From: Treponemataceae bacterium
GTDB lineage: Bacteria > Spirochaetota > Spirochaetia > Treponematales > Rectinemataceae
Reading direction: 5' to 3'
DNA: 64,000 nt
NCBI GenBank assembly: GCA_963667725.2
Contig: CAXXHO010000003.1
Location: forward strand, 128,001-192,000
Within the stretch, counting starts at the first letter, position 1, and each line of letters starts with the position of its first letter. The notes beneath the pieces were generated by a model, which saw only the letters and a list, made by a program, of their open reading frames with translations, made no database searches and was not told the DNA's origin. This document shows, one piece after another, positions 42,462 to 59,235 of the stretch. The translations under genes and the position numbers were made by a program.

Positions 42462-43114
42462 GCCAGCCGCGCGAAACGCGCTTCGTCGTGATGGTGTCGG
42501 GCAACGGCTCCAATCTGCAAGCGTTGATCGACGTCATCGAAAAAGGCGAACTGAAGGCCTCCATCGTCCTCGTGGTCTCCTCGGATCCAGAAGCCTACGC
42601 GCTGCGGCGCGCGGAAAGGGCCGGAATCCCGTCCATCGTCCTGCAGTACAGGCGCGATCCGAAGCTCGAGAAAGAAGCCTCGCGCAGGGCTTATGACAGA
42701 ATGCTCGCCGAGACTATCACGCCATATAAGGCCGACTACATATTTCTCCTCGGGTGGATGCGCATCCTGAGCGCCGAATTCACGACGAAATTTCCCGGCG
42801 GAATCGTCAACCTGCATCCGGCGCTTCCGGGCATGTTTCCCGGAACCCACGCCATCGAAAGAGCCTGGGACGCCTGCGCCAGGGGAGAAATCATTGAGTC
42901 GGGCGTCATGACCCATTTCGTCCCGGACGAATGCGTCGATGCCGGTCCCGTGATCGCTTTCGAGCGTGTAGCGATGGACAGGACTGAGACCCTCGACGTC
43001 TTCGAGAAAAGGATGCACGATACTGAACATCTTCTTGTCCCGCGAACGGCCGGGATACTCGGCTCGATTTCTTCCGGACAGAGAAAGGAGACTGAAGAAT
43101 GCCCCAGGCAATAA
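42458..43114 (+). CDS. purN: GAR transformylase
   Basis: SGNGSNLQA, GWMRILS, NLHPALP, VDAGP; GTGA overlap with the purDM stop. Confidence 0.94.
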   Translation: MSQPRETRFVVMVSGNGSNLQALIDVIEKGELKASIVLVVSSDPEAYALRRAERAGIPSIVLQYRRDPKLEKEASRRAYDRMLAETITPYKADYIFLLGWMRILSAEFTTKFPGGIVNLHPALPGMFPGTHAIERAWDACARGEIIESGVMTHFVPDECVDAGPVIAFERVAMDRTETLDVFEKRMHDTEHLLVPRTAGILGSISSGQRKETEECPRQ

Positions 43115-44640
43115 TTTCCGTTTATGACAAGACCGGCCTCGTCGAATTCGCCGGGAAGCTGTCGAAGTTGGGTTGGTCCATTCTCGCTTCCGGAGGCACG
43201 GCCAAGGCCTTGCGTGACGCAAGAATCGCCGTTGAGGAAATCGCCGACTACACCGCCGCGCCCGAGATTCTGGGCGGCAGGGTAAAAACCCTCCATCCCG
43301 CCGTGCATGGCGGCATTCTCGCGCGCGCCGCGGGCAAGGACCTCGATGAAATCCGGGAGCTGGGATACAAGGCCGTCGACCTCGTCGTCGTGAATCTTTA
43401 CCCCTTCGAAAAGACGGTGGCCGATCCAGCCTGCGGCCGCTCCGACGCCATCGAGCAGATCGATATCGGAGGCGTGGCGCTGATCAGGGCGGGCGCGAAA
43501 AATCACGAGCGTGTAACCGTCCTCTGCGATATCGCCGACTATGAACCCGTGCTGAGCGAGCTCGAAACCGCCGGTTCCGTTTCGGAAGCAACCAGGAGAA
43601 GCCTCGCCGCCAAAGCCTTCGCGAAGACGGCTGCGTACGATGCGGCCATAGCGGCCTGGCTCGCGGACCAGGCGAAATCGGCCGGCTCGAATGCGGCGGC
43701 ACCGTTTTTTACGCTCAGCGGCTGGAAAGCCCAGGATCTCCGTTACGGGGAAAATCCCCACCAGAGCGCCGAACTCTATGCCTTCGAGAAAGGGAAGGGT
43801 CCGCTCGGCGGCTGTATCCTCCAGGGCAAGGAATTGTCCTACAACAATATCCTGGACCTGGACGCGGCATGGCATGCCGTTGGCCGATTCCGGAACCCGG
43901 CCGTCGTCGTGGTGAAGCATCTCTCCCCCTGCGGCATAGCGGAAGCGGAAAGCGCGGACGCGGCCTGTCTCCACGAAGTCCTGGAGCGGGCCATCGCCAG
44001 CGATCCCACATCAGCCTACGGCGGAGTAATAGCGGTCAACGCTGTTTTCACGGCTGACTGCGTCAGAAGCCTCGGCAAGCTTTTCGCCGAGTGCATCGCC
44101 GCCCCGGGATTCGACGACGAGGCCCTGGAGCTTCTCGCCAAGAAGAAAAACCTCAGGCTCGTCATCCCGGGAAAAGGAATCCAGAGCGTGGAGATAAGGA
44201 CGGTGCTTGGCGGATTTCTACGCCAGGATATCGACGCGGGCGATCCCGAGGAGACAGAATGGAAAACCGTTTCCAGGCGCGCTCCGACTGAAACGGAGTT
44301 GCGCGATCTCCGCTTCGCGTGGAAGGCCTGCATGTCCGTAAAATCCAACGCCATCGTGTTCGCCAAGGGCTGCGCGACGGTGGGTATAGGCGGCGGCCAG
44401 CCCAACAGGGTGGATTCGGTGCGCATCGCCGCCCAGAGGGCGGGCGCGAAGGCCGCGGGTTCGGTGCTTGCTTCCGACGCGTTTTTCCCGTTTCCGGATT
44501 CCATCGAGGAAGCCGCGAGGGCCGGCATTACGGCCGTCGCCCATCCCGGCGGTTCCATCAGGGACGCCGAATCCATAGATGCGGCGGACAGAGCGGGCAT
44601 CGCGATGGTGCTCGTCGGCGTCCGCCATTTTAGACATTAA
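43099..44640 (+). CDS. purH: AICAR transformylase / IMP cyclohydrolase
   Basis: SVYDKTG, GRVKTLHP, IDIGG, RYGENPHQ, SNAI, ASDAFFPF, RHFRH. Confidence 0.96.
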   Translation: MPQAIISVYDKTGLVEFAGKLSKLGWSILASGGTAKALRDARIAVEEIADYTAAPEILGGRVKTLHPAVHGGILARAAGKDLDEIRELGYKAVDLVVVNLYPFEKTVADPACGRSDAIEQIDIGGVALIRAGAKNHERVTVLCDIADYEPVLSELETAGSVSEATRRSLAAKAFAKTAAYDAAIAAWLADQAKSAGSNAAAPFFTLSGWKAQDLRYGENPHQSAELYAFEKGKGPLGGCILQGKELSYNNILDLDAAWHAVGRFRNPAVVVVKHLSPCGIAEAESADAACLHEVLERAIASDPTSAYGGVIAVNAVFTADCVRSLGKLFAECIAAPGFDDEALELLAKKKNLRLVIPGKGIQSVEIRTVLGGFLRQDIDAGDPEETEWKTVSRRAPTETELRDLRFAWKACMSVKSNAIVFAKGCATVGIGGGQPNRVDSVRIAAQRAGAKAAGSVLASDAFFPFPDSIEEAARAGITAVAHPGGSIRDAESIDAADRAGIAMVLVGVRHFRH

Positions 44641-44707
44641 TACAGAGACGCTTGTATCGTCGCGACAAGCGACATTACAGGCAATGTTACGAGCGGAGGA
44701 TAAACAG

Positions 44708-46189
44708 ATGAACGAAGAGATTTTCAAATCCAGCACGGCCCTGACTTTTGACGATGTGCTCATCGTGCCGGCATACAGCGAGATTCTGCCGGCCTATATC
44801 GACACGAAAGTGCGCATAGCGCGCGACCTCACCCTCAACATACCGCTTCTCTCGGCGGCGATGGATACGGTCACAGAGTCCGCTCTCGCGATCGCCCTGG
44901 CCAGGATGGGCGGAATGGGCGTCATCCACAGAAACATGTCTCCCGAGCAGCAGGCCGGAGAAGTGGACAAGGTTAAGCGATCCGAATCGGGCATGATTCT
45001 GGATCCCGTATGCCTTGAAAAGGAAGCTTCCCTCTCCGAAGCCCGCGAACTCATGCAGAAATTCCGGATCTCGGGCATCCCCATCACGAGCGGACCCGAG
45101 AAAAAACTCGTGGGAATACTCACCAACAGGGATATCCGCTTCTGCGCCGCGGAGGATTACGACAAGCCCGTGAGCAGCTTCATGACGAGCGAGCGGCTGA
45201 TCACCGCCAGGGTGGGCACGACGCTCGAGCAAGCCAGGAACATACTCCAGGAACACCGCATAGAAAAGCTGCCCCTGACCGACGAAAAAGGCAGGCTCAA
45301 GGGCCTCATCACGGTGAAGGACATAGCCAAAAAGGCCGACTACCCCAATGCCGCCCTCGATTCCTCCGGCCGCCTTCGCGTGGCGGCGGCTGTGGGCGTG
45401 GGCGCCGACCTGGAGCGGCGTGTCGATCTTCTCGTGTCCAAGAAGGTCGATGCCCTCATCATCGATACGGCCCATGGCCATTCCAAAGGAGTCATCGAGG
45501 CCATAAAGAGAATCAGGGCGCTCGCGCCCGAGCTACCCGTCATCGCGGGCAACGTGGTGACGGCCGAAGGCGTGGAGGCCCTGGCCAAGGCGGGCGCTGA
45601 CGCCGTGAAAATCGGCGTGGGCGCGGGCTCCATCTGCACCACCCGCATCATCTCCGGGGCGGGCATGCCCCAGCTCTCCGCCATCTACCACTGCGCCAAG
45701 GCCGCCGAAGGGTTCGGCATTCCCGTGATCGCCGACGGCGGCATCAAGTTTTCCGGCGACATGGTCAAATCGATAGCGGCGGGAGCCCATGCCATCATGC
45801 TCGGCAACCTTCTCGCCGGCCTCGAGGAGTCGCCCGGCGAACTCGTCCTCTACAACGGCAGACAGTACAAGACCTACCGCGGCATGGGCTCGCTCGCCGC
45901 CCTCCAGGGTTACGGCAAGGACCGCTACGCGACCGGCATCGGCGCCTCGGACAAGCTCGTTCCCGAGGGCGTGGAGGGCATGATTCCCTACAAAGGCAAG
46001 CTTGCGGACTTCGTCTATCAGCTGATAGGAGGCCTGAGATCGGGCTGCGGTTACGCCGGCGCCGGCTGTCTCGAAGACCTGCGCACCAAGACTCGCCTCA
46101 CCAGAATCACGAACGCGGGGCTAATCGAAAGCCACGCGCACAACATAACCATCACGAGGGAAGCCCCCAACTACCAGCGCGGCGAGTGA
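44708..46189 (+). CDS. guaB: IMP dehydrogenase
   Basis: [19 protein letters not shown] pair, GSICTTR, ADGG, YRGMGS; GGAGG RBS. Confidence 0.96.
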
Positions 46190-46298: not shown

Positions 46299-46940
46299 AT
46301 GATCGATTTTATAGTAATGGGCGGAGTGGTGTTATGGGTCATCATGGCTCTTTCCGTCGTTGCCTGCGTCATCATCATCGAAAGATTGATATACCTTCGC
46401 CGCATTTCCGGCGATGAAAACAAGCTCTTTATCAGAATCAAAGCCAGCCTCCTTGAGGGACATTACAACGAGGCTCTGTCCATCTGCGACCAGAATCTTT
46501 CGCCCTTTTCTTCCTTACTCAAGACGGGGATCGAGAATCGCCACCAGCCCGAACAGGTTCAGCGCGACATTCTGAAGGACGCGGCGGCCCTTGAAGCGCC
46601 GACCCTCGAAAAGGGTCTTTCCGCTCTCGGCACCATCGGCACGATATCCCCGCTCCTCGGCCTCCTCGGCACCGTGACGGGCACGATGAAAGCCTTCGGC
46701 GTGCTCGGCAAATTCGGCGCCGTCAGCGATCCTTCGGCGCTGGCCTCCGGAGTCTCCGAAGCCCTCATCACCACGGTCGGCGGCATTGTCGTCGCCGTGC
46801 CGGTAATCATTTTCTTCAATTATTTCGTCAACCGCGTGAATCTGATCCTCACCATGCTGGAAAACAGAGTCAACACTCTCGTGATGCTGATCAACGCGGG
46901 CAACGGCCTCTCTAAAAAGAGCGATTCGGAGGAAGAATGA
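46299..46940 (+). CDS. exbB: MotA/TolQ/ExbB proton-channel protein
   Basis: SPLLGLLGTVTG, GVSEALITT; three TM helices. Confidence 0.88.
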   Translation: MIDFIVMGGVVLWVIMALSVVACVIIIERLIYLRRISGDENKLFIRIKASLLEGHYNEALSICDQNLSPFSSLLKTGIENRHQPEQVQRDILKDAAALEAPTLEKGLSALGTIGTISPLLGLLGTVTGTMKAFGVLGKFGAVSDPSALASGVSEALITTVGGIVVAVPVIIFFNYFVNRVNLILTMLENRVNTLVMLINAGNGLSKKSDSEEE

Positions 46941-47350
46941 GCACACGACGTCTGTCGCCGAAAATCGGCGTCGATATGACGCCGCTCATCGATGTAATCC
47001 TGCAACTCATCATATTTTTCATGATCACCACCACGTTCAGGGCGGCCCCCGGCATTTCCCTGGACCTGCCCGGTTCCAGGACGGCCCAGTCCGTTTCTTC
47101 GTCGGCCCTCCATGTCGTGGTGATGACGGAAAACGAAATTTACGTCGAGAAGACGAGAACCAACCTCGAAGGCCTTCCCGCCGTCCTTAAGCAGCGGGTG
47201 TCCGGCTCCGATTCCAGCAGCGTCAGGGCCGTGCTCGAGGGCAGATCGAGCGCGTCGTATCAGCTCATCATCTCCGTCCTGGACGCGTTCAGGATGAACG
47301 GCATCGAAAATGTCGGCCTCATCACAAGGAAGGAGAAGACGGTTCGATGA
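46937..47350 (+). CDS. exbD: ExbD/TolR protein
   Basis: DMTPLIDVILQLIIFFM. Confidence 0.9.
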   Translation: MSTRRLSPKIGVDMTPLIDVILQLIIFFMITTTFRAAPGISLDLPGSRTAQSVSSSALHVVVMTENEIYVEKTRTNLEGLPAVLKQRVSGSDSSSVRAVLEGRSSASYQLIISVLDAFRMNGIENVGLITRKEKTVR

Positions 47351-48492
47351 AGTCCCCATTGAGCTATGCCGAACAGCAGGAGAAGAAACGCAAAGCGCTC
47401 TCGGTCGGCATAACCTTCGGGCTCTATGGCCTGACCCTGGCCGTGGGCATCGTTTTGAGCATTCTCAATCCTCAGGAGCAGAATTTCTCCAATACCACGG
47501 TCGTCATAAATCTGGACGGTCCCGTCATGAACCAGATCGGGCTTGGCTCGACGAACCCTTCCGAGAAGGGCGAGGAAGCGACGGTAGCCGAACCTACGGT
47601 GCCCGTGAAGACTCCTGAGGTTAAGAAAACCGTTGACGAACCCAAGGCGATGATTCCCGAACAGGCGGCCGTGAAACCCCTGGCCAAACCGGCCCCGACC
47701 CCGACGCCCCCTAAAGCGGCGGCCAAAGTCGAGACGGCTTCGGCGGTCCCGGCACCGGAACAGCCCAAGGTCGCCGAGACGCCTGGCGCATCCTCGGAGC
47801 CGCTTCCCGAAGTTACGCCGCCCGGATTGGTCGCCTCGGCGCCCGAAGAAACGCCTGTCACTCCCTGGGTTCCAGGCCAGCGCGATCCCGGTTCCCATAT
47901 AAGTTCGACCAATTCCATGCTCTTCGTGCCGGGAAAAGGCGAAGTCCCCTGGACGGGGAGCCAGATGACCATACGCAAATCGGAAAAGGGCAGCGCTTCG
48001 GAAACGACCCTTGGAGGGGCCCAGGGAACGGTAGGCCAGAACCTTTACGTCCCTATCTATTACAGCTTCCCCTTGCCAAAAACGGTGCCGGCCTCGATCT
48101 ATAACGCCATTCCCAACCTCACGCAATCGCCCAACGTCATCATCTATTCAGCTCAGGCTAGAAAGAAAGCTTTCACCTCGTATTATGAATTCGACGGCTC
48201 CGCCTATCGGCTCAAGACGGACGTTCCTCTCGACCAGCGCGAACCGCTATGGCAGATACTTGAAGATGCCGGTTATAACGTGGCCGACGCCGATTTTAAA
48301 AAGGGCAGGAACCTGTCGCCCGTGGTCATCGTGTTCACCGTCACGAACAACAATCAGATAAAAGGCGCCGAGATTTATCAGTCCACCGGTGATCCCGAAA
48401 TGGATAGAGCCGCGCTGAACGGATTCAAGAGAGGAATGTACTGGAACAAGACGGGCGAGACGGTGCCCGGCCGCTTTACGTATCGATTCTAG
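47347..48492 (+). CDS. TonB-like energy transducer
   Basis: N-terminal TM helix, Pro/Ala-rich linker, C-terminal VVIVFTV..QSTGDPEMDRAAL TonB_C-like motif; follows exbBD. Confidence 0.7.
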   Translation: MKSPLSYAEQQEKKRKALSVGITFGLYGLTLAVGIVLSILNPQEQNFSNTTVVINLDGPVMNQIGLGSTNPSEKGEEATVAEPTVPVKTPEVKKTVDEPKAMIPEQAAVKPLAKPAPTPTPPKAAAKVETASAVPAPEQPKVAETPGASSEPLPEVTPPGLVASAPEETPVTPWVPGQRDPGSHISSTNSMLFVPGKGEVPWTGSQMTIRKSEKGSASETTLGGAQGTVGQNLYVPIYYSFPLPKTVPASIYNAIPNLTQSPNVIIYSAQARKKAFTSYYEFDGSAYRLKTDVPLDQREPLWQILEDAGYNVADADFKKGRNLSPVVIVFTVTNNNQIKGAEIYQSTGDPEMDRAALNGFKRGMYWNKTGETVPGRFTYRF

Positions 48493-49561
48493 AAAGGTTG
48501 AAATAGTCTTCGTAGAGTTTCGCGTTGAAAAATGCCGCCACCACGTCCGGCGCGAACTGCTTCCCGCTTTCCGCCTTGATTTCTTCAAGCACCGCCTCCA
48601 GGGGCAGCGCTTTTCTATAGGGGCGGGATTGAGCCATCGCGTCGAAAGTGTCGGCTAAGGTTATTATGCGGGCCAGAGGGTCTATATCTTCTCCGGCGAC
48701 CCCGTCCGGATAGCCTTTGCCGTCCCAGCGTTCGTGATGGTGCCTGACGCCATTGATGGCGGGAGCGAAAAACTCGACGATCGAAAGGATCTGGGCGCCG
48801 ATGAGCGGATGCATCTTTATGACTTCGATCTCTTCGGGATCGAGCGAGCCCACTTTATTGAGAATCCGTTCCGGAATGCCTATCTTGCCGATGTCGTGGA
48901 GCAGCGCGGCGAACTCCAGGGGTTCTATCTGGTCTTCGGGCAGCTTGAGTTCCCTGGCGAGCCTCACGGCCAGGCTTCGCACCCTTTCGCAGTGCCCCTG
49001 GGTGTACTGGTCCTTCGCCTCGATGGTTTCGGCCAGAGCCTGGACCGTCTGCATGTTGGCCTGTCTCAGTCTACCGTATGTTTCGTTGAGCTCCATCGTC
49101 TTGGACTGCATGGTGCGTTCAAGCGTGAGCCTGTATTCCTCGTTTTTTTTGTCCTGCTCGAATTTTTCCCTCATGATATCCCGGTAGCGGACAGCCTTGG
49201 CTATGACTTCGGCGATATGCTCCAGCCTGCTCGGTTTTACGAGATAGTCGAAGGCCCCATTGCGCATGGCTTCCAGACCTGTGGAGAGGTCGCTGTAGGC
49301 GGTGAGCATGATGACGGGGGTAAAGGGCTTGACTTCCCTGATCCTAGGCAAGGCTTCCTTGCCCGAGAGAATTGGCATTCGTATGTCGAGAAGAATGCAG
49401 TCAGGATCGAGGTTGCCCGAGGTGAGCATGTCCAGGCCTTCCTGACCGTTCGTCGCCATGCTTACCGCGTATTCCATCCTCTCCAGACCGCGGGACAGGA
49501 CCTTGCGGATGGAGGGATCGTCATCGATTACTAGTATTGTCCGTTGCGTTGCTGCACTCAT
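48476..49561 (-). CDS. Response regulator with HD-GYP phosphodiesterase domain (RpfG-like)
   Basis: Receiver motifs VIDDD, LLDIRMP, MLTA, YLVKP; HD-GYP motifs KDQYT.GH, LHDIGK, HHERWDGKGYP; alternative start 49594. Confidence 0.93.
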   Translation of the reverse strand: MSAATQRTILVIDDDPSIRKVLSRGLERMEYAVSMATNGQEGLDMLTSGNLDPDCILLDIRMPILSGKEALPRIREVKPFTPVIMLTAYSDLSTGLEAMRNGAFDYLVKPSRLEHIAEVIAKAVRYRDIMREKFEQDKKNEEYRLTLERTMQSKTMELNETYGRLRQANMQTVQALAETIEAKDQYTQGHCERVRSLAVRLARELKLPEDQIEPLEFAALLHDIGKIGIPERILNKVGSLDPEEIEVIKMHPLIGAQILSIVEFFAPAINGVRHHHERWDGKGYPDGVAGEDIDPLARIITLADTFDAMAQSRPYRKALPLEAVLEEIKAESGKQFAPDVVAAFFNAKLYEDYFNLSRIDT

Positions 49562-49619
49562 GTAGACCTTTCCGTCAAAGCGATGAGAACCCATCGGTCC
49601 TCTTTCGGTTTCCGCGGAA

Positions 49620-50150
49620 TCATCCCTTTTTCATTCCAGGGAACAGGAATGGGACACTTTTCTTATATTCGTCGTATCCATGGAAAACCTTGGGAAAAGT
49701 GTAGCGATCTTGTATGAATATTAAAAGCAGATCGAGGCCAATCATGAGGGGAATCGTAAAGAAATTTTCGCTGAAACCCCGCAGGCCGCCGAGGGAGAGG
49801 GCCAGGAGGCAGAACCACCAGAATCCAGGATGCCTGCATAGAGCGTAGGAGCCGCCGCTGTATGGTTCGCCGGGCTTGATTTTTCCCTTTCTTCCGGCCA
49901 GCGCCAGCTCGAAAAAGACGGACCAGAGAAGGAGGGCGAAGGACAGGAGGGCCGTCAGGATGAGCAGCGGCGAAAAAAGCGTTCCGGACGGATTCGCTCC
50001 CCGACGGGCGGCGAGCAATCCAAGCGCCGCCCCGACCGTCAGATAGCCGACCGCCTGAAGGAGCGGAACGCCTTTTTTGCCTTTTGCCCAGAGAAAATCA
50101 GCCGCTATGAGCAGTAAAAATCCTAATACCGTAAGCGAATCCTGTACCAT
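49620..50150 (-). CDS. ICMT/PEMT-family integral-membrane methyltransferase
   Basis: Several TM helices, GGSYALCRHPG, C-terminal GYDEYKKSVPFLFP; start 50150 or 50162. Confidence 0.75.
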   Translation of the reverse strand: MVQDSLTVLGFLLLIAADFLWAKGKKGVPLLQAVGYLTVGAALGLLAARRGANPSGTLFSPLLILTALLSFALLLWSVFFELALAGRKGKIKPGEPYSGGSYALCRHPGFWWFCLLALSLGGLRGFSENFFTIPLMIGLDLLLIFIQDRYTFPKVFHGYDEYKKSVPFLFPGMKKG

Positions 50151-50217
50151 TGTGAAATGCATTATGCTATAGTATCCTCTGCTTTGCCAGATAAAAGTTT
50201 ATTTTAGAGGTTTCGGC

Positions 50218-53200
50218 ATGATTTTGGACGCATCGTCGCTCATTCCGGCATTGTCCTTCATTATTTATATCATCTTCATCGTATTCGGCATTTACAGCCG
50301 GAAAGAGAAAGTCGACACCTCATTCCTGCTCTATATGTTCTTCATGGCGCTGTGGAGCTTTGGCTCTTTCATGATGCACGCCAATACGGGGCTTTTTTCT
50401 CCCCTGACCTGGAACAAGGTCATGCTGCTGGGGCTTTTCGGCGGACCTATCGCGTTCCTTCAGACCATGATATATCTATCCGGTACCGACAAAAAACGCT
50501 ATCAGATATTTCTTTATATTGGCTATATCATATTCTTTTTCCTGATCTATCTCAATCTTTCAGGCAAGGTAGTGACGGCGGCGGGCTTCGATGAGAGCGG
50601 CTTCTATTATGTCCTTGGCAACGGTTCCATCCTGGCGTATTCGCTCTCCTACTTTTTCCTGGGCCTGTCAATTCTTCTTCTATTACGCCAGCTCAAGGCC
50701 AGCGACAACAAGTTCAAGAAGAAGACGCTTAGGCTTCTCATCATTGGCGTTGGCATTATCGTAGTCGGCGTCGCGGCGAATCTGTACAAGCCTATCGGAA
50801 AGTATCCCATCGACCTCCTCGCCACGACGATCAACGCCGCGATCATCTTCTTCGCGGTTTATAAATACCGTCTCATTCACTACTCCTCGGCGGTGCTCAA
50901 CATCCTCCTCACTTTCTTCGTGTCCATACTGACGAGCGCCCTTTTTCTCTTTTTCTTCGTGCCGGTTTTTCATATCAACAACGCGATTCCCTTTCCCCGG
51001 GTCCTCCTCCTGGCACTTATCCTGGGGTTCATCACCTCGATAATCCTCTCGCCGCTCCGGACGACAACCCTCTCCTTTCTCGAGAGGCTCTATGGCGGCA
51101 AGACCTTCACCTACTATCAGAGCCTGAGGGTGTTCTCGGCCAGCCTTACCTCCATCGTGGATCTCGAAACCCTGGGCAACCTCACCATGGAGAAAATCAC
51201 CTCCACCTTCGGCCTCGGATGGGCCCTGATGCTGGTCAACGATTTCAACGACAGGAATTTCAAGCTCAACGTGGCCAAGCAGCTGCCGTTCGATGGGCGT
51301 ATCATCGAAGGGCAGGATCAGTCGATAAGCCTGAAGCGCGGAAGCGAGTTCGTCAGGGTATTCGCGGTTCATCAGGGCAGCGAAAAGAGCGAAATGCAGT
51401 ACCTCTACGTGCCGCAGACCATGATAGACATCACCCTCGAGAAGGGCGAGATTTCCGAAACCCTGAAGGCCAGCCTTATCCTCCCCCTCAAGTTCAAGGA
51501 ACGCCTGAACGGTTTCGTCATACTCGGACCTCAGCTCGACAGGGACTATTACAACCAGTTCGATCTGGAGATGCTCCAGCTACTGAGCGTCCAGTGCTCG
51601 GTGGCCCTGGAAAACGCCATCACCTTCGAGCGGCTGAAGCAGCAGCAGAAAAGGCTACAGAACATCAACAACCAGCTGGAAATCAGCCGTAACAAACTCG
51701 AAGCCTTCTTCGACGGCATCACGACGCCGATCACCATTCAGGACATCAACTACAATATCATCGAAGTGAATTACGCCGCGCGCCGCTATTTTGAGAAGTC
51801 CACCGAGGAACTGATCGGGAACAAGTGCTACAAGATGTTTTTCAACAGGGACAGACCCTGCCTCGAGTGTCTGGCCCAGGACTGCCTCCATACGCGCCTG
51901 CCCTTCAACGCGGAGCGGCAGGACGTGAAGGGACTGCTTACCTTCTCGCTCAACTTCTATCCCATTCCCGTCCCCAAGACGGCCACGCCCATTTTCCTGG
52001 AGTTCTTCCAGGACATCACCAAGCAGAAGACCCTGCAGGATGAACTTATCCAGTCGGAAAAGTTAGCCGGCATAGGTACCCTGGTGTCGGGCATCGCGCA
52101 CGAGATAAACAATCCCCTCGGCGCCATCCTGGGCACGGCAGACCTGATGCTCCCCGAGACCGCCGAGGGAAGCAGGCTGCAGGAATATACGCAGGATATC
52201 GCCCGTTATGCCCAGAACGCCGCGGAAGTCATTCAGGACCTTATGGTCTATTCGCGGAAGACGAAGAGCCAGCCCGATATGGTCAATATCGTCACTATTC
52301 TCGAAAACTCCCTCAAGCTCGCCATGCGCGGTATGGATTTCGGCTCGATCACGGTGAAGAAAAACTATAATCAGACGAACGAGGTTCAGGCCAACGCGAC
52401 CGAACTGCAGCAGGTCTTCCTCAACCTCATCGTCAACGCCGTACAGGCCATGAACTCGGACGGAACGCTGACCCTGGCCGCGAAACAGGAAGATGCCGAT
52501 GTCATCGTGACCATCAAGGATACGGGCATCGGTATCAAGAAACAGAATCTCGACAAGGTCTTCAATCCCTTCTTCACGACTAAAGATCCCGGAGCCGGCA
52601 CAGGGCTGGGACTGAGCATCGCGCATCACATCGTATCGAAACTGGGGGGTAGGATCATCATCGACTCTGAAGAAAAGCAAGGTACGACCTTCCAGATAGT
52701 CCTCCCGGCGGCTAACATGGAGCGCAACAAGATCCGTTTCGTCCACGCGAAGGATACGCGCCAGCTCGAGGACAGTTTCTACCTGCAGCGCAAGGTCCTC
52801 GTGGGCGAAAAGGGCTATCTGGAGGAGACCATCCACCGGAGCGAGGACGAGAGCGCCTTCCACCTGCTGGCGTATAAGGGAATGCAGCCTGTCGGCACGA
52901 CAACGCTTCACTTGAGCGAAGTCGAGGGCGAAATCCCCATACAGAGCAATTACGATCTTTCGGAATACATGGACGGCACTCCCTACGCGGAAATAGACCG
53001 ACTGGCTATCATCAGGGAAGAGCGCGGCTCGATCGTGCCTTTCAGCCTCATGGTCCTCTCCTATCTCTACATCAGAGGCAAGGGCGTGGATAAGATGTTC
53101 CTTGATGTTTTCAGCGACGAGACAAAGCTCATCCGGATGTACGAAAAGCTGGGCTTCAGGGTGATCGGAACCTACAACAAGCCGCTCGCGTGCACGGTGA

Positions 53201-53412
53201 TGATGCTGAACCACGAATCGAACTACATCGACACCGTTTCGAAGATGGAGCATTTCGTCCAGAGCTTCTTCTCCCGCCTCATACCCAAGCTGGAGTTCGA
53301 CGGCGAGGACAAGGAATATCTCTACAAGACCATAAACGAGATAAACAAGAAAACCGAAAGGATAGGCGAGGGTTTCGCGCAGGACCAGAAAGAAAACGAC
53401 GCCGAAGCATAG
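50218..53412 (+). CDS. Sensor histidine kinase: multi-TM N-terminus, GAF, Cys-rich PAS, HisKA, HATPase and a C-terminal FeeM/LuxI-like GNAT acyltransferase domain
   Basis: [52 protein letters not shown]; then [33 protein letters not shown]. Confidence 0.88.
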
Positions 53413-53430: not shown

Positions 53431-54504
53431 TTAATAGAATATTGTGCGCTGCGTCTTGGCGGATGAGTAGATTCCTTCGATGATCTTCACCGCTTCCATG
53501 CCATCCTCCCCGGTGACCTTGGGTCTTGTGCCGGCGGCCGCCGCCTGGGCGAAATCGTCGATCTGAAGCGAGAAAAAATACCAGGTCGGCTCGATTTTCG
53601 AAAAGAATTCCCCATCTTCGCGTTTCCAGACATCAATCATCTTTTCCTGGCCGGGAATGGTCCAGATGTCGTTGTAGGGCGGCTCGAGGATGCCGCTCAT
53701 CCCCGCGATGAACATGGCGCCGCCGTCGGTCTGAACGCCCGCCGAGGCGCCCGAGCTTCCATGGACGCATACCTTGGCGAAAATGCCTGGCTTCTGGGAA
53801 TTGGAGACAAAGATGGAGCCGAGGCCGCCGTTCTTGAAGTGGACGGTCGCGACGGCGCTGTCGTCGACTTCGATGTAGGAATGGTTGGCGTTGATCCAGC
53901 TTCCGGATACGCCCGAGACCGAGCCCATGTACCAGGAGAGGAGATCGAACTGGTGGGGAGCCTGGTTGACGATGACGCCGCCGCCCTCGTGTTCCCAGGT
54001 GCCGCGCCAGGGGTCTGAGTTGTAGTAGGCTTCGTCGCGCCAGCCCAGGATGGTGACCTGGCCGAGGAGGGGGGAGCCGAGGAGGCCTTCGTCGATGGCG
54101 CGCCTGATGCGCAGGGTGGAGGGGTACCAGCGGCGCTGGCAGATGACGCCGAGATTGCGATGGGCGGCGAGGGCGGCGGCGTTCATGGCGTCGCAGTCGG
54201 CGACATGGAGGGCCATAGGCTTCTCGACGAGGGTGTGGAGCCCGGCGCCCAGGCATTCTATGGCGCAGGCGGCATGGAGAGGGTGAGGGGTGGTGACGAT
54301 GACGGCCTGGACGCCGTCGCGGTCGGCCATCTCGGCGGCCGAAGAGCGCGCCTCGATGCCCCAGCTCTTCGCGAAGGCCCGGGCTTTAGCCGCGTCGCGT
54401 CCGCAGACCGAGACGAGGGTGGCGTTTTCGCTCGCGGCGATGGCTTTCGCGTGGAGCTGGGCTACTTTGCCGTATCCGTAGAGGCCGAATTTTATCTTGC
54501 CCAT
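53431..54504 (-). CDS. Gfo/Idh/MocA family oxidoreductase
   Basis: GYGKVA, TTPHPLH, VEKPMA, GGGVIVNQAPH. Confidence 0.9.
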   Translation of the reverse strand: MGKIKFGLYGYGKVAQLHAKAIAASENATLVSVCGRDAAKARAFAKSWGIEARSSAAEMADRDGVQAVIVTTPHPLHAACAIECLGAGLHTLVEKPMALHVADCDAMNAAALAAHRNLGVICQRRWYPSTLRIRRAIDEGLLGSPLLGQVTILGWRDEAYYNSDPWRGTWEHEGGGVIVNQAPHQFDLLSWYMGSVSGVSGSWINANHSYIEVDDSAVATVHFKNGGLGSIFVSNSQKPGIFAKVCVHGSSGASAGVQTDGGAMFIAGMSGILEPPYNDIWTIPGQEKMIDVWKREDGEFFSKIEPTWYFFSLQIDDFAQAAAAGTRPKVTGEDGMEAVKIIEGIYSSAKTQRTIFY

Positions 54505-54552
54505 GCCTTGTTTCCTCCTGGATTCAATGGGGTCATCGATGAGGCCGCCGGC

Positions 54553-54617
54553 ACTGGTGCTCCGGCGCCGCTAAGGGGGGGCTCCGGAGCCGCGGGGGGA
54601 TGCCCCGGCGCCGGAGC
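54553..54617. repeat. GC-rich intergenic inverted repeat (REP-like)
   Basis: Arms GCTCCGGCGCCG and CGGCGCCGGAGC flank the internal palindrome GGCTCCGGAGCC. Confidence 0.55.
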
Positions 54618-54619
54618 CT

Positions 54620-55654
54620 TCAGGGCTCGAGCACGACTTTGAGCAGGCCTTTTTCGCGGGCGTGAAGCCTGGCGAACCAGGAGGCTCCCTCGGAGAGCGG
54701 GGCGATCGCGCTTATTATAGACTTCGCGTCGATCTTGCCGCGCGCGAGGAGGTCGAGCACGAGGGGGTATTCACCCGCCATGGCGCAGGAACCATAGAGG
54801 GTGAGCTGCCGCGTGACTATGGCCTGGAGCGGCATTTCCACGCTGGGGCTCACGTTGCCGATGAGGGTGACGGAGCCGCCCTTGCGCAGGGCGCCGATCG
54901 CGGTAGCGATCGGCGCCGAAGCGCCCACTGCCTCGAAGGCGCGGTCGAAGCCGCGGCCGCCCGAGAGTTCGAGGATGGCCGCCTTGGTCGCGGGGGAGGC
55001 GGGGTCGAGGGCGGCCGACGCGCCTGCCGCGAGGGCGGCTGCCCTCCGTTCGGGGTCGGTTTCCAGCGCGAGGATCATGCCGGCTGAATGAGCCCTCAGT
55101 ATTTGGATGAGAAGCAGCCCTATAAGCCCGGCGCCCACCACGACGAGAGAGTCGCCCATCTTTATGGGGGTGATGGCAGCCGCGTGCGCCGCCACCGCCG
55201 CCGGTTCAGCGATCGAGGCGGCCGCGAAATCCAGGGCTTCGGGCATCTTGTAGAGAATCCTCTTGGGAAGGACGATATATTCGGCGAAGGTGCCATCCCG
55301 TCGGTAATCGCCGCAGGAGACGCCGAGCACCTTCCTGTTGTCGCAGAGGTTCACCTCGCCGCGCTTGCAGTAGAAGCACTCGCCGCAATATTCGGTGGAA
55401 TCGAAGGTGACGCGGTCTCCTACCCTGAAATCCCTGACGCCGGCGCCCGCTTCCACGATTTCTCCCGAGGCTTCATGTCCCATCACGATGGGAGGAATGC
55501 GTCTTCCCGTCGAGCCGTCCATGCCGTGGACATCGGACCCGCAGATAGCGGACGCCCGCACCCTGACGAGCACGTCGTTTTCATCCCGGAGCTTGGGGTC
55601 AGGATAATCGCGGAAAGAAAACTTCATGTACTCTTCGAGAACGAGCGCTTTCAC
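54620..55654 (-). CDS. Zn-dependent sugar-alcohol/sugar-acid dehydrogenase (MDR family)
   Basis: ICGSDVH, MGHE, CGECFYC...C, GAGLIG. Confidence 0.88.
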   Translation of the reverse strand: MKALVLEEYMKFSFRDYPDPKLRDENDVLVRVRASAICGSDVHGMDGSTGRRIPPIVMGHEASGEIVEAGAGVRDFRVGDRVTFDSTEYCGECFYCKRGEVNLCDNRKVLGVSCGDYRRDGTFAEYIVLPKRILYKMPEALDFAAASIAEPAAVAAHAAAITPIKMGDSLVVVGAGLIGLLLIQILRAHSAGMILALETDPERRAAALAAGASAALDPASPATKAAILELSGGRGFDRAFEAVGASAPIATAIGALRKGGSVTLIGNVSPSVEMPLQAIVTRQLTLYGSCAMAGEYPLVLDLLARGKIDAKSIISAIAPLSEGASWFARLHAREKGLLKVVLEP

Positions 55655-56736
55655 CGCTGAATCCTCGCCGAGCCGCCCTTCGCGAAAGAAACGACCTGAT
55701 CGAGGGTAGCCATGGTCGTATCGCCGGGGAAGGTCGTGAGGAGTGCGCCGTGAGCCCAGCCAAGGGCGAGCGCTTCCTGCGGATCCTTGCCTTCGAGCAG
55801 ACCGTAGATGAGGCCGGCCGCGAAACCGTCGCCGCCGCCGACGCGGTCGTACACGTCGAGTTCGGCGGTCGGGGCGGCGTAGCGCTCGCCCTCCAGCCAG
55901 AGAACGGCGCTCCAGAGATGGCGGTTGGTGGACTTGACGTCGCGAAGAGTCGTGGCCACCGCCTTCACGTTCGGCCAGCGCGCCGTGACCTCCTCGATCG
56001 TCCTGTAGAAAGCCTCGGGATCGAGCTTCGAGGCCTTATGGATGTCGGGTCCCTTCAGGCCCAAGCCCATCTGGAGATCTTCCTCGTTGCCGACGAGCAC
56101 GTCTACCTGTTCGGCGATGCGGCCGAGAATCTCGGGAGCCGAGGCGGAAGAGCCGTTGGCCGCCCAGAGCTTGGCCCTGTAATTGAGGTCGAAGGAGACG
56201 ATGGCGCCCGCTTTTCTGGCGGCCTTCATCGCCTCGATGACGAGTTCGGGCGTCGTCGCAGAGAGGGCGGAGAAGATGCCGCCCGAATGGAACCAGCGTA
56301 AGCCCTTGGAGAAAATGGCGTCCCAGTCGAAATCGCCCGGCTTGAGAAGGGCCGCCGCCTCGTTCGCCCTGTTATAGAAGACGACGGGAGCACGCACGCC
56401 CTGTCCCCTATCGGACCAGACCTGGGCCATGTTCGGGCCGCGCACGCCATCGTGCCTGAAGCGTTTGTAGATGCCCTGGACGTTCATCTTGCGGGCTTCG
56501 CTCTCGATCTTGGCGCCGATCGGGTAATCCACCATGGCGCTCGCGATGGCCGTGTTCTGGCCGAAGCAGCGGGCGAGGTTGGCCGCGACATTGAACTCGC
56601 CGCCCGACACGTGAATTTGGTAGGTATCGGCGAAGCCGAAGGGAACGATGCCCGGATCGAGCCTCGTGACGAGGGCGCCCAGGGCGAGGAAATCGAGTGA
56701 ATCCGCCTTCTTCGGCGGAATTTTCATGGCTGACAT
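55651..56736 (-). CDS. PfkB family sugar kinase (KdgK-like)
   Basis: GGEFNVA, SFDLNYRAKLW, GNEED, DRVGGGDGFAAG; GGAGG RBS. Confidence 0.88.
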   Translation of the reverse strand: MSAMKIPPKKADSLDFLALGALVTRLDPGIVPFGFADTYQIHVSGGEFNVAANLARCFGQNTAIASAMVDYPIGAKIESEARKMNVQGIYKRFRHDGVRGPNMAQVWSDRGQGVRAPVVFYNRANEAAALLKPGDFDWDAIFSKGLRWFHSGGIFSALSATTPELVIEAMKAARKAGAIVSFDLNYRAKLWAANGSSASAPEILGRIAEQVDVLVGNEEDLQMGLGLKGPDIHKASKLDPEAFYRTIEEVTARWPNVKAVATTLRDVKSTNRHLWSAVLWLEGERYAAPTAELDVYDRVGGGDGFAAGLIYGLLEGKDPQEALALGWAHGALLTTFPGDTTMATLDQVVSFAKGGSARIQR

Positions 56737-56749
56737 TCTATGTACCTCC

Positions 56750-58201
56750 TCAAGCTGTATAAGTGGATGCCGCGGTCGAACCGCCGTGCCCGGTCCAGTT
56801 CGTATGGAAGAATTTGCCGCGCGGCTGGTCGATTCTTTCGTAGGTGTGGGCGCCGAAATAGTCCCTCTGGGCCTGCAGCAGATTGGCGGGGAGGGTTTCG
56901 GTCCTGAGGCCGTCATAATATGAAAGAGCCGTGTAGAGCGCCGGAGCGGGGATTCCCGACATCGCGCATTCCGCGACGACCCTGCGCCAGCTGTCCTGGC
57001 TGGCCGCGAGTTTCGCGGCGAAGAAGGGGGCGATGATGAGGTTCGCCAGTTTTCCGTCCGCGTCGAAGGCTTCCTTGATCTTGCCGAGGAAAATCGAGCG
57101 GATGATGCATCCGCCTCTCCACATGAGGGCGATGGAACCGAAGTCGAGGGTCCAGCCGTATTCCTTGGCCGCTTCCTTCATGAGAAGGAAACCCTGGGCA
57201 TAGGAAACGACCTTCGCGGCATAGAGCGCCGCGCCCAGATCGGCGAGGAAAGCTTCCCTGTCGCCCTTGAATGACTTGATCGCCGGTCCTTTCAGTATCC
57301 TGGACGCCGCCACGCGGTCGTCTTTCGCCGCCGAGAGACAGCGGGCGAATACGGATTCGCCGATGAGCGTAAGCGGGATGCCGAAATCCAGCGCCGCGAT
57401 CCCTGCCCATTTTCCCGTGCCCTTCTGGCCCGCGGTGTCGAGAATCTTGCGTACGAGAGGCTCTCCATCCTCGTCCTTGAACTTCAGGATATCCCTGGTT
57501 ATCTCCACGAGATAGGAGTCGAGGTCTCCCTTGTTCCATTTCGCGAAAACCGCGCTCATCTCGTCTTCCTGCATGCCGAGCTTGTCGCGCATGATCTGGT
57601 AAACCTCGCAGATGAGCTGCATGTCGCCGTACTCTATGCCATTGTGGACCATCTTCACGAAATGGCCTGCTCCGTCGGAACCCACCCAGTCGCAGCAGGG
57701 GCTTCCGTCCTCGACCTTGGCGGCGATAGCCTGAAAAATTGGCTTTACGAAGGGCCAGGCCGCGGCCGATCCTCCCGGCATCAGGGAAGGCCCGAGGAGA
57801 GCGCCTTCCTCGCCGCCGGAAACGCCGGTGCCGATATAGAGGAGGCCCTTTGCCTCCACTTCCCTGCAGCGCCGCATGGTGTCCTGATAATTCGAGTTGC
57901 CGCCGTCGATGATGATGTCGCCCTTGTCGAGATGAGGCAGAAGCTGGGCGATCGTGTCATCCACGGCCTTGCCCGCCTTGACCATCATCATGACCTTGCG
58001 GGGCGAGCTGAGCATTCCCGCGAGCTCGGCCGGCGAATGAGCGCCCTGGATTTTTTTGCCCGCGCCCCTGCCCGCGATAAAATCGTCGACCTTGCTCGTC
58101 GTCCGATTGTAGACCGCCACGGAAAAACCCTTGCTTTCCATGTTGAGCACGAGGTTTTCCCCCATCACCGCGAGTCCTATAAGACCAATGTCAGATTTCA
58201 T
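56750..58201 (-). CDS. gnd: 6-phosphogluconate dehydrogenase, decarboxylating
   Basis: IGLAVMGENL, GVSGGEEGA, KMVHNGIEYGDMQ, QKGTG, QRDYFGAH. Confidence 0.96.
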   Translation of the reverse strand: MKSDIGLIGLAVMGENLVLNMESKGFSVAVYNRTTSKVDDFIAGRGAGKKIQGAHSPAELAGMLSSPRKVMMMVKAGKAVDDTIAQLLPHLDKGDIIIDGGNSNYQDTMRRCREVEAKGLLYIGTGVSGGEEGALLGPSLMPGGSAAAWPFVKPIFQAIAAKVEDGSPCCDWVGSDGAGHFVKMVHNGIEYGDMQLICEVYQIMRDKLGMQEDEMSAVFAKWNKGDLDSYLVEITRDILKFKDEDGEPLVRKILDTAGQKGTGKWAGIAALDFGIPLTLIGESVFARCLSAAKDDRVAASRILKGPAIKSFKGDREAFLADLGAALYAAKVVSYAQGFLLMKEAAKEYGWTLDFGSIALMWRGGCIIRSIFLGKIKEAFDADGKLANLIIAPFFAAKLAASQDSWRRVVAECAMSGIPAPALYTALSYYDGLRTETLPANLLQAQRDYFGAHTYERIDQPRGKFFHTNWTGHGGSTAASTYTA

Positions 58202-58221
58202 AGTTCCTCCATCATATTCCA

Positions 58222-59064
58222 CTATATTCTTCTGCCGGCTATCGCCGAACGCATCTTCTCCACGTTTTTAAGGCCCTTTTCCTTGAGAAACTCCATCGCT
58301 TCTATGTAGAGCGAATCTATGATGGCCAGCTGGGCTATCCTGGCAGAGAAGGCCTCCGAAATGACTTTGGCGCCAGGCGCGGCCGAGAGCAGCACGAAAT
58401 CGGCGTTTCTGGCCAAAGGCGAGAGGTGATAGGTCGTAATGGCAGCTACCTTGCATCCCGTTTTTTTCAGCACGTCCACGATGGCGAGGGTGTCCTTGTT
58501 GGCGCCGGTGTTGGAGATGACGAGTGCGATGTCCCCGCTCCCGGCCTGAGAGGCCACCATGAGCTGGAGATGGAAATCCTCGGCCGTCTGGCAGCGAATG
58601 CCGGATCGTATGAATTTATGGAAGGCATCCTTGGCGACGACGCCCGAGCCTCCGAGCCCGAAGACAAAAAATGCCGGAGCTTCGCAGGCTAGCCGGGCAA
58701 TTTCCCGGATCCGCTCCCTGTCCAGCAGCTTTTCCGTCATGTCCAGGGCGCTTCTGGCCGCGCCGAAGGCCACGACGACGGGGTCTTCGGAATCCGTAAC
58801 GGCGGTTTCGTAGTAGCGGGATTCGGGCGCGAGGGTTTCCGTGGCGAGGGCGATCCTGAACTGCTGGTAGCTTTCGTACCCGAGTTTTTTGACGAAGCGG
58901 AGCAGGGTGGAGACCGATACGCCTATATTCGACGCCAGCTCATCGATGCTTGGGTGAACGGCCTCGGCGGGCCGGGAAAGAATGTAGTTCGCGACGGTGC
59001 CTTCCTTTCCGCTCAAGCCGTCTTTCAGCGAATGTATGAGATAAATGCAGCTTGGCTCAGCCAT
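58222..59064 (-). CDS. RpiR/MurR family regulator (HTH plus SIS)
   Basis: SIDELA..VSVSTLLRFVKKLGY, FGLGGSG, ISNTG, SARIAQL. Confidence 0.92.
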   Translation of the reverse strand: MAEPSCIYLIHSLKDGLSGKEGTVANYILSRPAEAVHPSIDELASNIGVSVSTLLRFVKKLGYESYQQFRIALATETLAPESRYYETAVTDSEDPVVVAFGAARSALDMTEKLLDRERIREIARLACEAPAFFVFGLGGSGVVAKDAFHKFIRSGIRCQTAEDFHLQLMVASQAGSGDIALVISNTGANKDTLAIVDVLKKTGCKVAAITTYHLSPLARNADFVLLSAAPGAKVISEAFSARIAQLAIIDSLYIEAMEFLKEKGLKNVEKMRSAIAGRRI

Positions 59065-59120
59065 TTCGCCACTCCATGATCTTGTTGTACCATCGACCTT
59101 CTTTTGTGTAAAGTATATCG

Positions 59121-59195
59121 TGAAAAAAATATTCTTTCAAAAGAAAATAATTTTCATACTGGAAACTTGACGGCAAAGGGAAAGGATAGGATACT
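59121..59195. promoter_or_regulatory. Candidate RpiR operators and sigma70 promoter of the ABC operon
   Basis: Inverted repeats TGAAA-N9-TTTCA (59121-59139) and GAAAAT-A-ATTTTC (59143-59155), then TTGACG-17-GATACT. Confidence 0.55.
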
Positions 59196-59235
59196 ACAAA
59201 ATAGCTTTACCGTACTTTATCTGAAGGAGGCCTTC

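Follow-up and report, generated by a model that had tools for sequence, protein, structure and literature searches.

The 64,000-nucleotide window analysed here (positions 128,001 to 192,000 of contig CAXXHO010000003.1, assembly GCA_963667725.2, from a Treponemataceae bacterium of the Rectinemataceae) contains a cassette of three genes: a membrane sensor histidine kinase fused to a FeeM-like acyltransferase domain of the GCN5-related N-acetyltransferase (GNAT) fold and, read in the opposite direction, a predicted S-adenosylmethionine (SAM)-dependent membrane methyltransferase and a response regulator with receiver (REC) and HD-GYP domains. The three open reading frames are laid out divergently, as described in an earlier note on this DNA made from its letters alone, and the gap between kinase and methyltransferase is under 70 bp (55 bp to the first ATG of the methyltransferase, or 67 bp to its second Met at 50150, the start that aligns across its relatives). 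The cassette comprises the following features, in window coordinates:

48476..49594, minus strand: REC-HD-GYP response regulator, predicted cyclic di-GMP (c-di-GMP) phosphodiesterase, 372 aa (REC and HD_5 domains)
49620..50162, minus strand: ICMT/PEMT-fold membrane protein, predicted SAM methyltransferase, 180 aa; conserved start probably 50150
50151..50217, no strand: divergent intergenic region, 67 bp, in which a TATAAT-like box recurs some 10-17 nt from the start of the methyltransferase
50218..53412, plus strand: sensor histidine kinase fused to a FeeM-like acyltransferase, 1064 aa (open reading frame list, Pfam)
50257..50877, plus strand: HisKA_7TM membrane sensor domain, aa 14-220 (Pfam; in a tree, one clade with the sensors of the GH3 cassette described below)
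51160..51612, plus strand: GAF domain, aa ~315-465 (weak Pfam matches below the cut-off; clear GAF matches in the GH3-cassette sensors)
51694..52029, plus strand: PAS domain, aa ~493-604, with invariant C537, C548 and C551 (Pfam and alignment)
52078..52713, plus strand: kinase core, HisKA and HATPase with N, G1, F and G2 boxes; phospho-accepting His628 at 52099-52101
52717..53268, plus strand: FeeM-like GNAT acyltransferase domain, aa 834-1017, with invariant Glu925 at 52990-52992 and a non-canonical P-loop (R-G-S-I-V-P)

The kinase displays the Pfam order HisKA_7TM (14-220), GAF, PAS, HisKA (621-681), HATPase (727-832) and FeeM (PF21926, 866-985), and more hydrophobic segments lie between the HisKA_7TM domain and GAF. 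As the earlier note had proposed, a GNAT-fold domain follows the HATPase in place of a receiver: PF21926 scores 35-38 bits on the tail against a cut-off of 27, the Pfam scan matched no receiver or HPt domain in the 1064-aa protein, and the motifs quoted in that note ([26 protein letters not shown] and YEKLGF) are located in the tail. The kinase boxes are likewise intact, with H628, N740, D768, the F box and G794-G798 at least 90% conserved among 120 homologues. The PAS domain carries the motif K-C-Y-x9-P-C-x2-C-x4-C/S-L-H (aa 537-558, 51826-51891), whose three Cys are invariant in 120 of 120 homologues and may form a metal, Fe-S or redox site, possibly a second input. No match to PrsK (TIGR02916) was found in the N-terminal half, and the kinase was therefore not classed as a PEP-CTERM kinase; exosort_acyl matched weakly in just four of 68 tail-domain members.

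In the regulator, D70, T98, K120, H233-D234, H286-H287-E288 and GYP 294-296 are at least 90% conserved among 60 sequences. The protein thus has the Asp, Thr and Lys of REC, with D70 as phospho-acceptor, and the HD, HHE, GYP and RxY motifs of RpfG-like REC-HD-GYP regulators, as it had been described, and its predicted output is c-di-GMP breakdown, although another cyclic dinucleotide may be its substrate. The 50151..50217 region probably acts as a shared promoter region, possibly with overlapping back-to-back promoters, and the -10-like box near the methyltransferase start could give a leaderless transcript.

The linkage of the three genes, whose co-occurrence the earlier note had suggested checking, is widely conserved. 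In species genomes 134 relatives were found, of which the best 80 loci were examined; 14 could not be judged because of contig ends or, at L031, an apparent rearrangement, and two others show the methyltransferase gene and then end, leaving 64 evaluable loci (L078 was counted positive for a match outside the coordinate filter, and L054, L057, L072 and L081 were judged evaluable by eye). The full triad, in the same divergent order and with kinase identity down to 39%, is present at 55 of them, while five have kinase and regulator, one has kinase and methyltransferase, and three have the kinase only. The closest loci, with kinases 98% and 94% identical, are in records labelled Treponemataceae and Rectinemataceae. 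The fused kinase occurs in 22 of 61 related genomes, and the source genome has a single copy of the FeeM-like domain. The record that holds L031 (1-9293) carries the label of another phylum; its match to the kinase covers nothing before aa 601, and the sequence upstream is unrelated, which suggests rearrangement or misassembly.

Flanking genes vary while the triad stays. ExbB/ExbD/TonB-like genes (46299-48492; names we presume from sequence likeness) point towards the regulator gene, with a 17-bp overlap at its end. Neither these nor the downstream oxidoreductase gene were counted in the unit; both are confined to closer loci and are absent from L056-L102, bar one distant weak match.

The extent of the fusion was evaluated from both ends of the kinase. 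Searching with the tail domain yielded 158 proteins of 585-1862 aa, the best 120 of which all carry FeeM and HATPase domains; among the matches listed, all those with an organism name belong to the Spirochaetota. The reverse search, with aa 1-605, yielded 153 proteins, and PF21926 was called in 116 of the best 120. The remaining four comprise P0303 with a complete domain, P0311 with a break inside it, P0308, which ends at the first residues of the domain, and P0309, which is cut off in the HATPase; no clean unfused kinase was found among these best 120 sensor-half matches (8000 candidates scored). At least 90% conservation was observed at 60 of 165 positions in the GNAT tail, compared with 41 of 80 in HisKA and 44 of 114 in HATPase, and on these alignments the tail is conserved to the same degree as the kinase core. 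The kinase-GNAT fusion is real and old, and no chance event. Among more distant relatives, the tail domain occurs by itself or joined to REC (P0135) or PilZ (P0147); these fusions indicate that this sub-family has repeatedly been wired into signalling.

The tail had been compared with both FeeM-type and LuxI-type synthases, and only the first comparison held. PF21926 was matched by 68 of 68 tail members at E<=0.01. A structure model of the tail (predicted local distance difference test score, pLDDT, 87) was compared by VIA Z score and by Foldseek: VIA ranked FeeM first (Z 17.2, root-mean-square deviation 3.0, 173 residues aligned), followed by YjcF (15.9, 137 aligned), RpaI (15.2) and LasI (15.1), and the Foldseek TM-scores over the query were 0.60-0.61 for FeeM and BjaI versus 0.53-0.55 for SACOL1063 and YjcF. 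Sequence identity between the tail and FeeM is only 17-19%; the profile of the 68 members failed to find FeeM at E 0.01, and a wider profile found it with E 2e-5 at rank 13. In a two-step alignment via the bridge protein P0174, which involves no direct superposition, AEIDRLA of the tail falls on LAEVVQFA of FeeM and IPIQSNY on LPMDSIY, and Glu925, present in 120 of 120 homologues, is aligned with Glu95, the proposed catalytic residue of FeeM; the equivalent Glu103 of Nas354 is essential (PMC4897644). The segment aligned with LPMDSIY is part of a ~25-aa xPIxxxFxL insert after strand 3, which SACOL1063 and YjcF lack (split profile matches), and the coenzyme A (CoA) P-loop Q/R-x-x-G-x-G/A was found in none of the 68 tail domains, a loss described for the carrier-protein GNATs FeeM and SbzI (PMC11685415). 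Insert, invariant Glu925 and P-loop loss together place the tail on the FeeM side. It is FeeM-like by Pfam, modelled fold and motif, and acyl-amide synthesis is its predicted activity.

With FeeM and the other N-acyl amino acid synthases of type I (NAS) the tail shares the fold, the GY, GT...LP and Glu motifs and the non-canonical P-loop; it differs from FeeM in its position behind the HATPase of a membrane kinase and in a conserved C-terminal helical extension. Membership among the LuxI N-acyl-homoserine lactone synthases was rejected in spite of the similar fold: the LuxI autoinducer-synthase Pfam family was not among the matches of the 68 members, and the LuxI N-terminal motifs (GW, E-x-D-x-F-D and G-x-x-R, as in RpaI) are replaced by GY, EETIxRxED and GTxx. 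The ElaA/YjcF-type CoA acetyltransferases were rejected as a family for the tail, which is without their CoA pyrophosphate loop and has the insert between strands 3 and 4. Atlas searches returned only HisKA_7TM and GNAT/FeeM clusters.

Taken alone, the 180-aa membrane protein gave no relevant Pfam match; within its family, 18 of 40 members matched ICMT and nine of 40 matched PEMT, the observation that bears on a possible relation to OlsG-type lipid N-methyltransferases. The family signature is GxYxxxRHPG...[EQ]D...FP..F..Y..Y, and the model (pLDDT 94) fits the ICMT/sterol-reductase fold; Foldseek with this model gave nothing under E 0.001, and the fold Z scores are modest for a helical protein, with the motif alignment in agreement. 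The earlier designation as ICMT-like is thus borne out by family Pfam matches, fold, GxYxxxRHP motif and acidic pair, but one residue of Ma-ICMT is missing: the position of its R163 is L147 here, with Leu in 53 of 56 sequences from GNAT-type cassettes and Tyr or Leu in 46 of 47 from the GH3-type cassettes described below, whereas most generic ICMT/PEMT controls have an Arg near this position. E85 is retained in 55 of 56. Since this Arg, which we take to be the carboxylate-binding residue of Ma-ICMT, is missing, ICMT-type carboxyl methylation is doubtful; the acceptor is probably something other than an ICMT-type carboxylate, and perhaps an amine. In all, the protein has the fold, the GxYxxxRHP motif and the C-terminal acidic/Tyr motifs of the ICMT/PEMT methyltransferases (PF04140, PF04191; PDB 4A2N, 5VG9), but differs by RHPG for RHPxY, by Leu or Tyr at the Arg163 site and by forming a separate cassette-bound clade. 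A predicted complex of the 7TM region with the methyltransferase scored 0.00 and was not used as evidence.

The methyltransferase also marks a sister cassette. Its profile was matched at E<=1e-24 in 26 of the 61 genomes, namely in 21 of the 22 with the fusion (unlinked in G019) and in five without it, and in all five of the latter it stands in a row with a gene of 535 aa and a 7TM-GAF sensor. The 535-aa gene encodes a homologue of the GH3 acyl acid-amido synthetases (PF03321/PF23571/PF23572, the N, M and C domains); these GH3 partners match JAR1 (E 1e-4), are also homologous to GH3.5 and GH3.15, and contain the nucleotide-binding motifs TSGRSGEYDxK, YxxTE and GxxxRxxxGD, with motif I divergent by comparison with the motifs given in PMC12493201. 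A metagenome scan with the GH3 gene confirmed 158 relatives, from which 80 loci were kept (43 clusters at 90% identity). The sensor is downstream in 65 of 67 evaluable loci (35 of 35 clusters) and the methyltransferase upstream in 65 of 77 (62 of 75 by script, with L114, L115 and L188 added by hand). HD-GYP is fused to the GH3-cassette sensor in 46 of 55 (19 of 27 clusters), the other outputs being GGDEF or kinase domains. Twelve GH3 loci are without an ICMT-fold gene, and among the five in which the upstream gene was scanned, four have a class I SAM methyltransferase and one has a ThiF-family gene (L127:910-1761). The cassette at L128:554-7238 combines a class I methyltransferase with an ICMT-fold one and has receiver genes after it, and at L103:4692-5240 an Acetyltransf_3 GNAT is divergent from the methyltransferase.

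HisKA_7TM is widespread (52 of 61 genomes, five matches in the source genome), and the relatedness of the two sensor types was therefore tested against 40 control HisKA_7TM regions, hand-picked from the 150 matches listed so as to span the score range. With the fused-kinase profile the controls score at most 24.6 bits and the GH3-cassette sensors 37-116 bits; the latter had passed a 30-bit filter, by which two full-length sensors scoring 24 and 27 were lost. A quick maximum-likelihood tree groups 21 sensors of GNAT type with 26 of GH3 type in a single clade that excludes the 40 controls (SH-like approximate likelihood ratio test, SH-aLRT, 99). Likewise, 37 plus 22 methyltransferases, together with an unlinked copy, are separated as a clade from 11 generic ICMT/PEMT sequences (97); for both trees sequences were thinned for redundancy, and support is SH-aLRT with no bootstrap. 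On this comparison, a single receptor clade is accompanied by two enzyme slots, each occupied by enzymes of unrelated fold but of the same predicted reaction, namely amide formation in one and methylation in the other, and the GH3 cassette independently points to these two reactions being wired to a 7TM sensor and HD-GYP.

Three further propositions about the two cassettes were rejected. The direction of the GNAT/GH3 swap could not be read from the sensor and methyltransferase trees, which disagree without strong support. Strict mutual exclusion was not accepted, because 22 versus five genomes without overlap among 61 are too few for significance and G064 has both, its GH3 gene being in two pieces (G064:C45:10976-12585). 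Relocation of the methyltransferase in loci without it was likewise discarded: a family member is found elsewhere in four of five such genomes, but these look GH3-type. The unlinked methyltransferases of GH3-type appearance (L108:7796-8377, L241:4460-5005, L242:3399-3935, L243:4512-5045 and L244:4617-5153) sit in genomes whose fused kinase has no adjoining methyltransferase, and could be relics or partners in trans.

Comparison with known systems sets the cassette apart. The note had likened it to the Rpf circuit of Xanthomonas, with which it has the logic of signal synthase, membrane kinase and REC-HD-GYP output in common. In Rpf, however, the synthase RpfF is a protein of its own with the crotonase fold, the kinase RpfC is a hybrid that includes REC and HPt domains, and a methyltransferase is lacking; with a GNAT-fold synthase and no receiver or HPt match in the spirochaete kinase, membership in the Rpf/diffusible signal factor family was rejected and only the likeness in logic remained. 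In PhcB/PhcS/PhcR of Ralstonia, a methyltransferase stands beside a kinase sensing a methylated lipid, as here, but PhcB is a soluble class I enzyme making a fatty-acid methyl ester, and Phc has no amide synthase, HisKA_7TM sensor or HD-GYP regulator. The cassette would work like Rpf or Phc and is a member of neither, nor does it belong to the LuxI or ICMT family. Nas354 is already known to be fused to a signalling domain and linked with c-di-GMP, and NAS genes with a methyltransferase are reported in PMC7293339, whose accessible text mentions no kinase.

FilI of the FilI-FilR1/FilR2 system of Methanosaeta harundinacea is reported to be both signal synthase and sensor kinase in one polypeptide; according to the parts of that report consulted, it consists of CHASE4, HAMP, PAS, GAF, HisKA and HATPase domains with no separate GNAT or FeeM domain, and a transcription regulator and a lone REC serve as its outputs, with no methyltransferase or HD-GYP named (PMC3991700). 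An amide-forming enzyme and a methyltransferase likewise share one gene unit in OlsH-OlsG-OlsI of Singulisphaera acidiphila (PMC12493201, PMC12971839), where the bacterial GH3 OlsH, encoded beside an N-methyltransferase, makes N-acyl-ornithine, its activity being reported in extracts only; this unit differs in having an O-acyltransferase and making a bulk membrane lipid, and its main text, as far as consulted, mentions no kinase (PMC12493201). GH3 and OlsB-type enzymes perform the same N-acylation for ornithine lipids (PMC12493201, PMC12971839, PMC7828035). HisKA_7TM is listed simply as a sensor domain in the consulted part of PMC5847659.

The cassette is real, conserved and apparently undescribed: the literature searched, in which subscription journals are largely missing, contained no description of it, nor a ligand for any HisKA_7TM sensor. 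Its anatomy is well established, and its function is deduced from folds, motifs and the swapping of genes. Our best explanation, for and against which we are evenly balanced, is that the three genes make a methylated acyl-amide and sense it, with c-di-GMP as output. The GNAT tail would move an acyl chain, probably from acyl carrier protein (acyl-ACP), onto an amine, with Glu925 as base; the membrane methyltransferase would methylate the product with SAM, more likely at the amine (as OlsG does) than at a carboxylate; the product would accumulate in the membrane or medium and bind the 7TM domain; GAF and the Cys-bearing PAS would pass the signal to His628, possibly with redox or metal input; and the phosphate would move from His628 to Asp70 of the regulator, setting its HD-GYP activity. 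With synthase and sensor in one chain, their ratio would be constant, and feedback may be possible. That the receptor detects the product of the enzymes is the simplest reading, because the two slots beside one receptor clade swap folds and keep their predicted chemistry.

Several observations weigh against this explanation. Because the loci are related, the counts lack independence, and a single 90% cluster holds 32 of the 80 GH3 loci. The methyltransferase gene is absent from eight of the 64 evaluable loci and the regulator from four, and the GNAT keeps nearly all its invariant residues there, which indicates that the parts are separable. For FilI, the nearest precedent, the product is reported to be without clear effect on autophosphorylation (PMC3991700). 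In the fold comparison of the membrane protein an NADPH sterol reductase (4QUV, Z 12.2) comes first, above ICMT (9.0) and Ma-ICMT (8.8); the reductase function suggested by this match is disfavoured by the acidic [EQ]D pair and by the swaps to class I methyltransferases. Finally, the tail has points of likeness to generic acetyltransferases, and the same gene set also fits amino-lipid synthesis or signal inactivation.

The rival explanations follow from these last points. A methylated lyso-amino-lipid of the OlsB/OlsH plus OlsG type might stay in the cell's own membrane, the 7TM domain gauging acyl-chain or SAM supply or the state of the membrane, with no cell-to-cell role. Such a lipid monitor would account for a methyltransferase that is an integral membrane protein without the ICMT Arg and for the tethering of the synthase to the membrane by the kinase, and it has a model in OlsH and OlsB, which share the N-acylation step, and OlsG, which N-methylates the product (PMC12493201, PMC12971839). 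We nevertheless think it unlikely, since the three-gene unit has no O-acyltransferase of OlsA/OlsI type, the OlsB-type family PF13444 was matched by only one of 68 tail members, and a bulk-lipid enzyme fused 1:1 to a sensor kinase would presumably be low-copy. The same gene logic would also serve to switch a signal off. Plant GH3 enzymes and methyltransferases inactivate auxin by conjugation and methylation, and here the 7TM domain could sense an outside acid or amine, which acyltransferase (or GH3) and methyltransferase would conjugate, methylate and inactivate. The homology of the GH3 partners to JAR1, GH3.5 and GH3.15 agrees with this, as does the frequency of amine inactivation among GNATs, but the FeeM-type insert, the invariant Glu and the CoA-loop loss point to long acyl-ACP donors, as in biosynthesis, and inactivating enzymes would usually be sensor-induced, not sensor-fused; this explanation seems distinctly improbable.

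That there is no small-molecule signal at all, the tail being a protein acetyltransferase of ElaA/YjcF type or a non-catalytic acyl-CoA sensor which tunes the kinase or acetylates the regulator, is in our view very improbable. SACOL1063 and YjcF, generic acetyltransferases of this type, do rank first by both HMMER and Foldseek E-value, so that the Foldseek check proposed in the note favours FeeM by TM-score only; motif B of the tail (YxKLGF) has the generic acetyltransferase form; RimI-type models match 62 of 68 tail members, weakly and far under the cut-off; and the domain is kept where the methyltransferase is lost. The insert shared with FeeM, the absent P-loop and the TM-scores nevertheless argue for FeeM, and the GH3 cassette and the linked methyltransferase would be left unexplained.

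A wider form of the make-and-sense explanation, which we advance tentatively and hold to be somewhat less than evenly supported, is that the cassette is one branch of widespread, undescribed circuits in which a HisKA_7TM clade detects a self-made methylated acyl-amide supplied by enzymes that can replace one another (a GNAT of FeeM type or a GH3 of plant-hormone type; a methyltransferase of ICMT fold or of class I), the spirochaete version controlling c-di-GMP through a synthase-receptor polypeptide. If true, this would represent new quorum-sensing chemistry, a ligand class for an orphan sensor family and a parallel to the GH3 and methyltransferase logic of plant hormones. A recognisable synthase domain on a sensor kinase is in itself an unusual architecture, and the question is testable, as the cassette suggests a ligand class and brings the enzymes to make it. 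The sister cassette is found on contigs labelled human gut, sediment and activated sludge, and one signal family may thus span many communities; related cultured spirochaetes among the records (Rectinema, Sphaerochaeta and Pleomorphochaeta) offer native hosts.

Elsewhere in the window, purine genes recognised by eye at 40092-46189 lie a few kb away from the cassette and comprise a PurD-PurM fusion (789 aa), PurN, PurH and IMP dehydrogenase. On the other side, at 53431-60486, lies what by eye is a sugar-acid catabolism cluster with an oxidoreductase, a Zn dehydrogenase, a sugar kinase, 6-phosphogluconate dehydrogenase, RpiR and an ABC binding protein.

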